Shown: positions 61,983-64,000 of the stretch, in pieces
How positions within the stretch are numbered: the stretch's first letter is position 1
Layout: each line of letters begins with the position of its first letter
From: Escherichia phage KK4
Sequence record: OR327750.1
Length of the DNA: 64,000 bases
Strand: one strand, 5' to 3'
The notes under the pieces: model-generated
Seen by the model: only the letters and a program-made list of their open reading frames with translations
Database searches by the model: none
What the model was told of the DNA's origin: nothing
Made by a program: the position numbers and the translations under genes

Positions 61983-62453
61983 TTAATCATGTTTCCACAC
62001 CCCATCGGTATTTGACCAAAGTCGCTGATTATCTGATCCTCGCCACAGCTTTTTAGTCGGAAGATTTTTCTCATACTTCCCATCAATAATAACATCAACA
62101 TATTTAAGCATTTCTAGCTGTTTAATATCTTCAAACTTATATCCTGTCCACAACCAAATGCTTTTATTGGGATAAAGATTTTTAATAGTTTGAACCACAG
62201 AGTGAATCACGTCTCTGTTATCAGGATAAAGAGGGTCTCCTCCAGTTATAGTTAATCCTTCTATATAATCATTATTCAAACATTCAATTAATTGTTCCAG
62301 TGTTTCACCAGTGAATGGAACGCCATTTCTAGCATTCCACGTTGATTTATTATAACACCCTTCACATTTATGCAAACAACCTGTAACGAAAAGAACGGTC
62401 CTGCATCCAGGGCCATTCACAAAGCAGCACGGGTATATTCTGTCATAATTCAT
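61983..62453 (-). CDS. nrdG: anaerobic ribonucleotide reductase activase NrdG (radical SAM)
   Basis: 156 aa MNYDRIYPCCFVNGPGCRTVLFVTGCLHKCEGCYN... Confidence 0.92.
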   Translation of the reverse strand: MNYDRIYPCCFVNGPGCRTVLFVTGCLHKCEGCYNKSTWNARNGVPFTGETLEQLIECLNNDYIEGLTITGGDPLYPDNRDVIHSVVQTIKNLYPNKSIWLWTGYKFEDIKQLEMLKYVDVIIDGKYEKNLPTKKLWRGSDNQRLWSNTDGVWKHD

Positions 62454-63282
62454 TTATATATTTCCAATTATAGCCTTCAACACTTTTACGTTCGCCATTT
62501 AAACATTTTAAAATATTTCCTTTGCTAGAAATATTAAAATATTTTGCTGCGTCTGGTATATAATTAAATGTTTTTAAAAGAACACCATCTTTATATGCGC
62601 CAAATAAATTAAGAGTATATTTTTCTCGAAGACGTTGATGTTTCCTTTTCATAACCTCAGGATTTGCATACGCCAACCTCAATGAATTTCTATGTTTTTC
62701 TTTTACTTCAGGTTTTTGCATTGCTAACTTAGTTAGCCTGGAAATTTTATTTCTAACTTCGTCAGTTTTCATTGCATTTGACAAATTTAATAAAGTTTTA
62801 TTTCTAACTTCAGGTTTTTGCATTGCTAACTTAGTTAGTTCTCTATGTCTTTTTCTAAAATCGTCATCCTTCCATATATTTTTCGATAATTTTGACATAG
62901 AGCGGTGAAATAATTCCTTTTCACTGGAATACAATTTAAGAATTTCATCCAATTCATTTGTATTAAATCTATCGGTATTCGAGTTTATCATTCTATGAAA
63001 GGCATAACACATTTTACTATTACTTGTTTTAGCTAAATAGTAATGAGCTAACGCGTGGTCATAATATGACAAATTAACAATATTCCATTTATCTGTTTTA
63101 TATTCAGGAAATATAGATTTGGGAAGCACGTGATGTGCTTCCGTTTTTCCTTTTATTTTAGGATTATTATAATTTTTTGTTATCAAATCAACATATGACA
63201 ATAGTAAATCATTATTTTCTTCAAATATTAAAGATAATTTATCATTCACAAAATCACAGGGATAAAATCTATCATAATTCAT
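62443..63282 (-). CDS. free-standing HNH homing endonuclease (mob-like, possibly mobC-type)
   Basis: 279 aa; HNH core EAHHVLPKS...NIVNLSYYDHALAH; tandem repeat LTKLAMQKPEV; first 13 codons mimic nrdG start. Confidence 0.8.
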   Translation of the reverse strand: MNYDRFYPCDFVNDKLSLIFEENNDLLLSYVDLITKNYNNPKIKGKTEAHHVLPKSIFPEYKTDKWNIVNLSYYDHALAHYYLAKTSNSKMCYAFHRMINSNTDRFNTNELDEILKLYSSEKELFHRSMSKLSKNIWKDDDFRKRHRELTKLAMQKPEVRNKTLLNLSNAMKTDEVRNKISRLTKLAMQKPEVKEKHRNSLRLAYANPEVMKRKHQRLREKYTLNLFGAYKDGVLLKTFNYIPDAAKYFNISSKGNILKCLNGERKSVEGYNWKYINEL

Positions 63283-64000
63283 TGGTGTTTAACCCTATGC
63301 ATGATTTCTTTATTTTTGCCGAGATTAAATCCACGTTCGTTCGGATTTCCCAAATAACCACAAGTTCTTCTTATTGTGTTCATCTTTTTAGGATCAGTTT
63401 CTCCACAAATAGAACAAACAAACCCGTTTTCAGTAGGAGTCATTTCATGGGTACTTCCACACGTAAAACATTTATCTACTGGCATGTTAACACCAAAATA
63501 ATCTAAATGTTGTGCAGCATAATCCCAGACAGCCTCAAGACCTTTTAGGTTATTTTTCATATCAGGAAGTTCAACATAAGAAATGTGACCACCTGTCGCA
63601 ATGAAATGATATGGCGCTTCACGAGAAATTTTTTCAAACGGAGTAATATTTTCTTCTACTGAAACGTGGAAACTATTAGTGTACCAGCCTTTATCGGTAA
63701 CATCTTTTACACTTCCATATTTTTCTGTATCAAGTTTACAGAAGCGATAACAAAGGTTTTCAGCAGGAGTCGAATATAAACTAAAAGCAAATCCAGTTCT
63801 TTCAGTCCACTGTTTAAGATGAGCATTCATTTTAGTTAAAATTTCTTGTCCAATATCACGACCGACAAGAATATTCAATTCGTGAATACCAATGTATCCT
63901 AGGGACACTGAACTTCTACCATTTTTAAATAACTCAATTATATCGTCATCAGGTTTAAGACGAACCCCGAATGCACCTTCTTGGTAAAGAATAGGAGCAA
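63279..64000 (-). CDS. nrdD: anaerobic ribonucleotide reductase NrdD, C-terminal part (gene continues beyond window)
   Basis: frame open to window edge; glycyl-radical motif RTCGYLG near C-terminus; Cys cluster CFTCGS..CSICG. Confidence 0.9.
   Translation of the reverse strand, partial: APILYQEGAFGVRLKPDDDIIELFKNGRSSVSLGYIGIHELNILVGRDIGQEILTKMNAHLKQWTERTGFAFSLYSTPAENLCYRFCKLDTEKYGSVKDVTDKGWYTNSFHVSVEENITPFEKISREAPYHFIATGGHISYVELPDMKNNLKGLEAVWDYAAQHLDYFGVNMPVDKCFTCGSTHEMTPTENGFVCSICGETDPKKMNTIRRTCGYLGNPNERGFNLGKNKEIMHRVKHQ

Follow-up and report, generated by a model that had tools for sequence, protein, structure and literature searches.

The nrdD-nrdG region of T4-like phages is a site at which free-standing endonuclease genes are found. 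In T4 itself the site holds the HNH gene mobC, and Sandegren et al. (2005) have been cited for seg and mob genes that target nrdD/nrdG and for the replacement of mobC by segH, a gene annotated in phage PP01 (PMC2988022). A different ribonucleotide reductase gene is the target of MobE, a free-standing HNH homing endonuclease whose activity has been demonstrated by experiment (PMC2790892, PMC2988022). According to two accounts (PMC3045599; bioRxiv 10.1101/2022.08.31.505936), the insertions of mobA with T4 gene 60/39 and of mobE, which splits nrdA in Aeromonas phage Aeh1, are accompanied by a workaround through which the host gene stays functional. Here we analyzed a stretch of 64,000 nucleotides (nt) from Escherichia phage KK4 (OR327750.1; hereafter the window), in which a 279-amino acid (aa) open reading frame (ORF) lies between nrdD and nrdG. 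The region is 100% identical to that of Escherichia phage GADU22, a T4-like Tequatrovirus, and we refer to this gene and its relatives at the site as GADU22-type. From sequence comparisons we conclude that the ORF probably belongs to an HNH homing-endonuclease cassette of the T4 Mob kind that lies inside the 5' end of nrdG, uses the nrdG start, and carries a recoded replacement for it. The Mob-type nature of the element, the nrdD-nrdG hotspot (since 2005), and the homing-endonuclease label in GenBank were known already; the anatomy of the insertion is new.

Anatomy and polarity of the insertion

Read along the minus strand, nrdD ends at 63279 and is followed by the 279-aa ORF and then by nrdG (Table 1). 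The ORF is real, as the original prediction from the sequence had stated, and it is intact. In insert-less genomes, nrdD is joined directly to nrdG by an ATGA overlap, and comparison with such junctions showed matching flanks with exactly 829 nt less (flank match of 1272 nt there and 2101 nt here). The same 829 nt separate the two copies of a 41-nt direct repeat (63243-63283 and 62414-62454; 78% identical), both of which lie exactly at a start codon; the ORF protein starts MNYDRFYPCDFVN and NrdG starts MNYDRIYPCCFVN. Over nrdG nt 1-40 the copies match at 31/40 bases, with a longest identical run of 11 nt, and within the 64-kb window one copy finds the other by BLASTN (E = 0.013) and TBLASTN (E = 0.004). 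As both junctions contain TTTGTGAATG, the cassette boundaries are defined only to within a shift of at most 10 nt. The predicted duplication of about 40 nt of the nrdG 5' end was thus confirmed, and the junction alignments indicate an insertion that is precise to the base.

The polarity of the duplication was read from a comparison of 7 cassette-bearing junctions (GADU22, PST, Ec_MI-02, TB004, the metagenome contig L042, and Klebsiella phages SmallBear and KP01, representing Tequatrovirus and Jiaodavirus) with 22 insert-less ones. The copy fused to the endonuclease differed from local insert-less relatives at 0-3/40 positions. E. coli-type phages have a fused copy that encodes MNYDRFYPCDFVN, with 2/40 differences from insert-less G29 and, in PST, complete identity to L006. 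The Klebsiella-phage version of the fused copy encodes MNFDRIYPSDFVN and has 0/40 differences from insert-less L022 and L031. By contrast, the copy attached to nrdG is the same allele, here called CC, in 7/7 cassette-bearing sequences of both lineages, and it differs from the local nrdG allele at 8-10/40 positions. Between GADU22 and G29, 8/40 positions differ in the CC stretch compared to 5/431 in the remaining nrdG (Fisher p = 1.3e-6). The E. coli-phage and Klebsiella-phage versions of the CC copy differ at 5 positions, all synonymous, which implies that this copy is translated and constrained. These allele comparisons identify the endonuclease-fused copy as the resident nrdG 5' end and the nrdG-attached copy as an imported variant, the reverse of the original prediction, in which nrdG had retained its own 5' end. 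With the lineage allele in the fused copy and CC in every nrdG-attached copy, the insertion point of the cassette is placed within nrdG, behind nt 40, and not, as had been predicted, between the genes. The 22% difference between the 40-nt copies reflects two different alleles and not the time since a duplication.

After its start codon, the next Met of the endonuclease ORF is residue 91, and the N-terminal peptide expected under the predicted start is MNYDRFYPCDFVNDK. The ATGA coupling that the original prediction placed on both sides of the ORF exists upstream with nrdD but not downstream, where the endonuclease TGA (62443-62445) falls within nrdG codons 3-4 and creates an 11-nt overlap of the ORF with nrdG. 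In Klebsiella phage KP01 (L036) and contig L042, which have otherwise different cassette lineages, 2 nt (TA) are inserted just 5' of the nrdG ATG; the endonuclease ORF then stops at TAA (..WKYI*) right before the nrdG ATG, and the 11-nt overlap is gone.

Table 1. Features of the nrdD-nrdG region; positions are those of the 64,000-nt window
Feature	Position	Strand	Basis
Mobile cassette (829 bp), comprising the endonuclease body from codon 14 onwards and the replacement nrdG 5' end	62414..63242	-	Junction alignments, repeat spacing
Resident nrdG 5' end (nt 1-40), now endonuclease codons 1-13 and the only ATG start of the ORF	63243..63282	-	Junction comparison
Cassette-borne replacement nrdG 5' end, CC allele encoding MNYDRIYPCCFVN; start of functional nrdG	62414..62453	-	Seven-sequence comparison
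Endonuclease ORF, 279 aa	62443..63282	-	GADU22 annotation "putative homing endonuclease" (WIL00090.1)
HNH (beta-beta-alpha-Me) nuclease core, residues ~45-85, KTEAHHVLPKS...WNIVNLSYYDHALAHYYL	63028..63150	-	Invariant residues, AlphaFold2 (AF2) model
Four 17-aa NUMOD3-like helical modules, residues ~141-210, pattern x6-L-x6-PEV-R/K	62653..62862	-	Repeats, model, relatives
First copy (coding order) of the internal direct repeat, aa 149-159 LTKLAMQKPEV	62807..62838	-	Repeat search
Second copy (coding order) of the internal direct repeat, aa 183-193 LTKLAMQKPEV	62705..62736	-	Repeat search
C-terminal NUMOD1/I-HmuI-NUMOD-like putative DNA-binding domain, residues ~235-272	62467..62580	-	Sub-threshold Pfam
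nrdG, anaerobic ribonucleotide reductase activase; target and host gene	61983..62453	-	Pfam Fer4_12 (9e-49), Radical_SAM (9e-8)
nrdD, 3' part, continues beyond the window	63279..64000	-	Pfam NRDD (7.5e-63), Gly_radical (2.2e-26); GADU22 annotation
ATGA, overlap of nrdD stop and endonuclease start	63279..63282	-	Same junction couples nrdD to nrdG in insert-less phages

Distribution and lateral transfer of the cassette

The GADU22-type body was found in 31 records, 21 from E. coli/Shigella/Yersinia/Salmonella phages and 10 from Klebsiella phages. By a rough census of the phage collection, ~843 records hold an nrdD-nrdG junction; T4-type mobC occupies the site in ~32 of them and segH in ~71, and the rest are empty. 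The nrdG 5' end and the site occupant were read in ~40 of the ~843 genomes. When IMG/VR was scanned for the exact pattern of the fusion junction, 0 matches were obtained. The predicted insertion of an HNH gene at this junction was borne out. Its presence is sporadic (31/~843 records) and confined to one precise site, and the junctions also speak for lateral transfer: Tequatrovirus and Jiaodavirus phages have identical ones, set in flanks typical of each lineage. This occurrence in two genera-level lineages with lineage-typical flanks implies that the cassette has moved horizontally. E. coli-phage copies of the cassette are 97-100% identical to one another, and E. coli-phage and Klebsiella-phage copies are separated by a synonymous divergence (dS) of 0.9, so that the recent insertion of the original prediction was not borne out.

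Beyond nt ~40, nrdG is typical of the lineage, and only the recoded 40-nt 5' end travels with the cassette. Because the co-converted flank is so short, cleavage would be expected near nrdG nt 40. A long T4-like co-conversion tract appeared at one point to be linked to the cassette in SmallBear; this reading was rejected, since most of the SmallBear nrdG is Klebsiella-native and the short T4-like patch is missing from KP01, its sister phage. The cassette is not strictly intergenic, as it lies inside the first 40 nt of nrdG, and it is not in an intron or intein: there is no Rfam intron match, and nrdG is restored by the duplicated 5' end.

Identity and conservation of the endonuclease

Homology assigns the 279-aa ORF to the Mob-type free-standing HNH endonuclease genes. 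The protein matches PHROG 655 ("homing endonuclease"; 2.5e-36) and PHROG 12434 ("HNH endonuclease"; 4.2e-15). The BLAST check suggested in the original prediction returned T4 MobB as the best match in a characterized family (BLASTP 4e-14; 27% identity over 250 aa), with similarity across the HNH core, the linker, and the C-terminal NUMOD1-like domain, and T4 MobC (BLASTP 1e-7) over the HNH core; MobB and MobC both pass the cut-off of Pfam HNH (PF01844). In an alignment of 41 homologues, H50, H51, P54, N67, H76, and H80 are invariant, and the 279-aa protein has the complete His-His...Asn...His...His catalytic/metal-binding motif (H50, H51, N67, H76, H80). The predicted "clear HNH core" thus stands at the level of motif and homology, with its five His/Asn residues invariant in the 41 relatives, but not at the level of Pfam HNH models. 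Among the 41 relatives, Pfam finds PF01844 in 5, NUMOD3 in 21, and the I-HmuI NUMOD-like domain in 7. The AF2 model of the core shows a strand at 47-51, a strand at 68-72, and a helix at 73-84, with predicted local distance difference test (pLDDT) scores > 90. NCBIfam returned nothing for the protein, and phmmer found no match among Protein Data Bank (PDB) sequences; against the PDB, a profile built from the 41-relative alignment picked up McrA, IscB, and Cas8-HNH at their HNH motifs, but only at E 0.05-0.25. Fold searches gave no informative match.

The ratio of nonsynonymous to synonymous divergence (dN/dS) between E. coli-phage and Klebsiella-phage endonuclease copies is 0.08 at dS 0.9, and the ORF is intact in 7/7 cassette-bearing sequences. 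These substitution patterns show strong purifying selection on the endonuclease. A perfect 9-bp hairpin, GGAAGCACGTGATGTGCTTCC, lies at 63122-63142, exactly where the catalytic EAHHVLP motif is encoded; the terminator scan picked it out as terminator-like for the antisense strand, but it may be incidental.

NUMOD-like modules and internal repeats

The protein is modular, with an N-terminal HNH nuclease followed by four NUMOD3-like modules and a C-terminal NUMOD1-like domain. The module region contains the repeat families D1 and D3, with periods of 51 and 102 nt, and the predicted model has one helix per module. Profile searches proposed with the original prediction gave no match to HNH or, on the 279-aa protein, to NUMOD3, and sub-threshold scores in the C-terminal domain for PF22083 (I-HmuI_NUMOD-like; 21.1 bits, cut-off 27) and NUMOD1 (17.4 bits, cut-off 22.8). 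Relatives aligned to the protein match NUMOD3 at the module positions; residues 152-169 of P0007 pass the NUMOD3 cut-off, and P0007 passes both NUMOD3 and NUMOD1. The modules are thus NUMOD-like by homology, and the predicted link between the repeated module and DNA-binding modules of phage homing endonucleases agrees with the NUMOD3-like DNA-binding region of the family. The C-terminal region aligns with the NUMOD1 domain of T4 MobB and has a dN/dS of 0.03; AF2 confidence there is low. 

LTKLAMQKPEV is encoded twice, as had been predicted, but the exact repeat is 32 nt long (62705-62736 and 62807-62838; E = 9e-11) rather than 36 nt with a copy at 62800-62835. If 90% identity is allowed, the repeat lengthens to 42 nt (62695-62736 and 62797-62838). 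The copies are spaced 102 nt (34 aa) apart, and the middle two modules arose from a 102-nt duplication. In contig L042, a natural variant, exactly 102 nt (one 34-aa unit) between the repeats are lost. Within each lineage the same synonymous variants occur in both repeat copies, which suggests conversion between the copies.

Comparison with mobC, segH, and other mobile endonuclease genes

T4 mobC (NP_049689) lies at the same site as the GADU22-type gene and in the same orientation, and it too overlaps nrdD by ATGA and nrdG by 11 nt. Its first codons are likewise those of the local nrdG start: the protein begins MNYDRIY in T4, and that of Klebsiella phage Wolf_ER13 begins MNFDRIY. Apart from this start, the two mobC genes are 100% identical. 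T4 MobC and the 279-aa protein share the ..GYxWKYxxEL* end, the HNH core, and a C-terminal NUMOD-like domain. However, MobC has 210 aa rather than 279 aa, identity is 38% over 60 aa only, and there is no DNA similarity; no T4 record was among the 31 DNA matches to the GADU22-type body, and the T4 mobC body had no match at GADU22-type endonuclease loci among the rows sampled. The mobC fusion occurs after ~7 codons (compared to 13), the replacement nrdG 5' end is different, and mobC is linked to a ~300-nt foreign tract in nrdG, whereas the GADU22-type cassette has no such tract. On these sequence differences, the GADU22-type gene is judged not to be an orthologue of T4 mobC, and the "mobC" label on PST's gene is therefore misleading.

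In T4 (L001), Elenatom (L040), and Shigella phage SHFML-11 (L039), the three E. coli/Shigella phages read with T4-type mobC, nrdG nt 60-300 are 90-100% identical to Klebsiella-lineage nrdG and only 46-76% identical to other E. coli phages, with E. coli-type sequence after nt ~300. Phages without T4-type mobC lack this Klebsiella-like tract (nt 60-300), which looks like a co-conversion footprint of mobC homing.

The segH gene (~71 records; RB10, RB3, PP01) occupies the same nrdD-nrdG site and, like the GADU22-type cassette, has the CC allele of nrdG on its downstream side; it also recodes a flank, in the form of a variant nrdD 3' end. It differs in encoding a GIY-YIG nuclease, in having an ATGA overlap with nrdG at its end, and in its apparent ORF start, which lies within the 3' end of nrdD and not on the nrdG start. 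MobB and MobE, unlike the GADU22-type gene, have their own start codons and lie between genes. Like the mobA and mobE insertions at gene 60/39 and nrdA, the GADU22-type cassette lies inside a coding gene and has a workaround, but here the workaround is a second copy of the 5' end, recoded and supplied with a new start codon, and not a split protein or translational bypassing. The wider Mob family comprises modular, I-HmuI-like HNH + NUMOD endonucleases, whereas the GADU22-type protein is below the Pfam HNH, NUMOD1, and NUMOD3 cut-offs.

Annotation problems at the site were seen in the RB10, RB3, UTI-K1, and PST records. In RB10 (L041), segH (1448-2270) is labelled "segD" and nrdG is called from an internal codon; the true segH start probably lies farther upstream, inside the 3' end of nrdD at ATGCATAGG, and with this start the GIY-YIG motif would be regained. 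The UTI-K1 endonuclease is labelled as NrdG activase.

The CC allele and exchange of cassettes

Within the CC allele, NrdG Asp10 is changed to Cys by three adjacent bases (GAT to TGC; codon 10 at 62424-62426). The Cys codon is also present in L004, L034-L037, L041, and L044. Cys10 occurs in every genome read with a GADU22-type cassette or segH and in three empty sites, and the remaining T4-like NrdG sequences read keep Asp10. An early impression from IMG/VR, that the CC allele is absent from all insert-less genomes, was dropped, as the allele is present in these three empty sites and after segH. The flanks of one of them, in ESh24, fit both loss of a cassette and spread of the allele.

SHFML-11 is chimeric: its T4-type mobC has the segH-type variant of the nrdD 3' end upstream and the CC allele downstream. 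These junctions imply that one endonuclease cassette replaced another, and on this sequence evidence cassettes evidently replace one another at the nrdD-nrdG site.

Expression context and neighboring elements

No promoter of its own was found for the endonuclease; promoter and terminator scans of the region were not above shuffled expectation, and the region contains no exact T4 late promoter. In the Klebsiella-lineage phages L004, L036, L022, and L031, a small ORF of ~77 aa lies between nrdD and nrdG and overlaps both, and it is to this upstream ORF, not to nrdD, that the endonuclease start is coupled when a Klebsiella phage has the cassette. GADU22 nrdD (L002 6826-8643) is annotated as one continuous gene of 1818 nt without the I-TevII intron, and PST, which has the same endonuclease cassette, has I-TevII; the two mobile elements of the nrd operon assort independently.

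Proposed mechanism and alternative explanations

In the mechanism that we favor, an 829-bp cassette without a start codon of its own continues the reading frame of the resident nrdG from behind its nt 40, and the endonuclease would be translated from nrdG's own ATG and first 13 codons. The enzyme would thereby inherit the ATGA translational coupling of nrdG to nrdD in E. coli phages and the coupling to the small upstream ORF in Klebsiella phages. Recoded nrdG nt 1-40 at the cassette 3' end would restore an intact nrdG, with an ATG located 11 nt before the endonuclease stop. In a mixed infection, the enzyme may nick or cut cassette-free nrdD-nrdG alleles close to nrdG nt 40, and repair from the cassette-bearing genome could then copy the cassette into the cut allele. 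The recoded 5' end may shield the carrier from its own enzyme, with Asp10 to Cys as the prime candidate change, and the divergence of the two 40-nt copies, whose longest shared run is short, could guard the cassette against deletion by recombination.

Several points weigh against this interpretation. The activity of T4 mobC is listed as not determined (PMC2988022), and we found no published cleavage, nicking, or homing data for the 279-aa protein or T4 MobC. The Pfam HNH models (HNH, HNH_3, HNH_5) gave 0 matches to the protein at E <= 1, and the assignment of the ATG at 63282 as the endonuclease start is based on ORF structure. The CC allele also occurs 3' of the unrelated segH cassette in RB10 and in the three empty sites, ESh24, U5, and ERS-1, among ~580 records with a full junction; because it occurs in these settings, its role as the GADU22-type enzyme's own immunity allele is unproven. 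SegH reportedly cuts its own genome too, in which case a homing endonuclease gene of a phage can do without immunity.

The duplication itself can be read in other ways. The same sequence is parsable as a recent insertion between the genes, just upstream of the nrdG ATG, in which the endonuclease gained a copy of the nrdG 5' end and nrdG kept the original; the repeat begins at ATG position -1, and the near identity of the E. coli-phage copies would suit such an event. We consider this quite improbable, because it is the fused copy that tracks the local lineage and nrdG that carries the same foreign allele in both lineages, because the cassette family has reached dS 0.9 between them, and because the CC allele is found in only 3 insert-less records. 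It is still harder to attribute the shared N-terminus to a Mob family trait (MNYxxIY), with no duplication and NrdG starting MNYDRIY by chance. T4 MobB does start MNYLNIYNLLIEKG (MNYLNIY), with ATGAATTAT identical to the first 9 nt of nrdG, and T4 MobC (MNYDRIYSNLVNS) shares only 7 residues with NrdG, part of which could be native. However, the match of the GADU22-type ORF runs on through PCDFVN (13 aa, 40 nt) and equals the local nrdG allele base for base, including lineage variants, and on this ground we rejected a family-trait origin for this ORF. T4 mobC itself switches from MNY to MNF in a Klebsiella phage. Homologues at other loci (P0004, P0005, P0007, and P0008; P0005 lies between T4 genes 47 and 46) have N-termini unrelated to nrdG, so that the nrdG-like N-terminus is not ancestral in all relatives, and the closest relatives at other loci start MKDLL.., MKNFKLD.., MEENG.., and MFINY...

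We give hardly any credence to a group I intron in nrdG with its ORF fused to the upstream exon, in which nt 40 of the first copy would be spliced to nt 41 after the second. ORFs of group I introns are commonly fused in frame to the upstream exon. T4 nrdD, nrdB, and td carry group I introns (PMC2988022). Nevertheless, an Rfam search of the region found no intron or other RNA family at E <= 0.2, and the insert holds a complete second nrdG start that appears to be translated, as its inter-lineage differences are all synonymous, and that would be redundant if spliced. It is unlikely, though less so than the preceding possibilities, that the gene is a domesticated or defunct relic that no longer homes and is kept for nrdG translation signals, marker exclusion, degradation of competitor DNA, or regulation. 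The nrdG ATG and its upstream context now lie within the cassette, and embedded signals favor retention of T4 mob and seg genes according to the review of Edgell (PMC2988022); selection on the gene is strong, yet it is present in only ~4% of related phages. By contrast, an identical cassette at an identical site in two lineages with native flanks indicates transfer, the swapping of cassettes in SHFML-11 indicates ongoing competition between endonuclease genes, and marker exclusion and homing are compatible with each other. Thus, a homing cassette that has captured the nrdG start and supplied a recoded replacement is in our view the probable explanation.

Implications

The GADU22-type gene is a third, distinct occupant of the nrdD-nrdG site that has been equated wrongly with T4 mobC in at least one annotation. 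A published survey reported no interrupted nrdG genes in phages (PMC3653736), and nrdG insertions of the GADU22 type are invisible to surveys at the gene level. From the junction comparison it can be seen how cassettes that lack a promoter come to be expressed and do no harm, in that the start of the target gene is taken over and a recoded replacement is given, and the same logic applies to T4 mobC. The recoded 40 nt, especially Asp10 to Cys, amount to a concrete guess at the recognition site. More tentatively, and with somewhat more doubt than confidence, we suggest that a 5'-end swap may be a general strategy at this hotspot, in which the start of the target gene is captured and a recoded 5' end serves as both repair and immunity allele. 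At least two unrelated HNH cassettes (GADU22-type and T4 mobC) would use this strategy and would compete and recombine with segH, and empty sites with the CC allele would be footprints of the process. If this holds true, such a cassette would be expressible in any lineage that it invades without a promoter or ribosome-binding site of its own.

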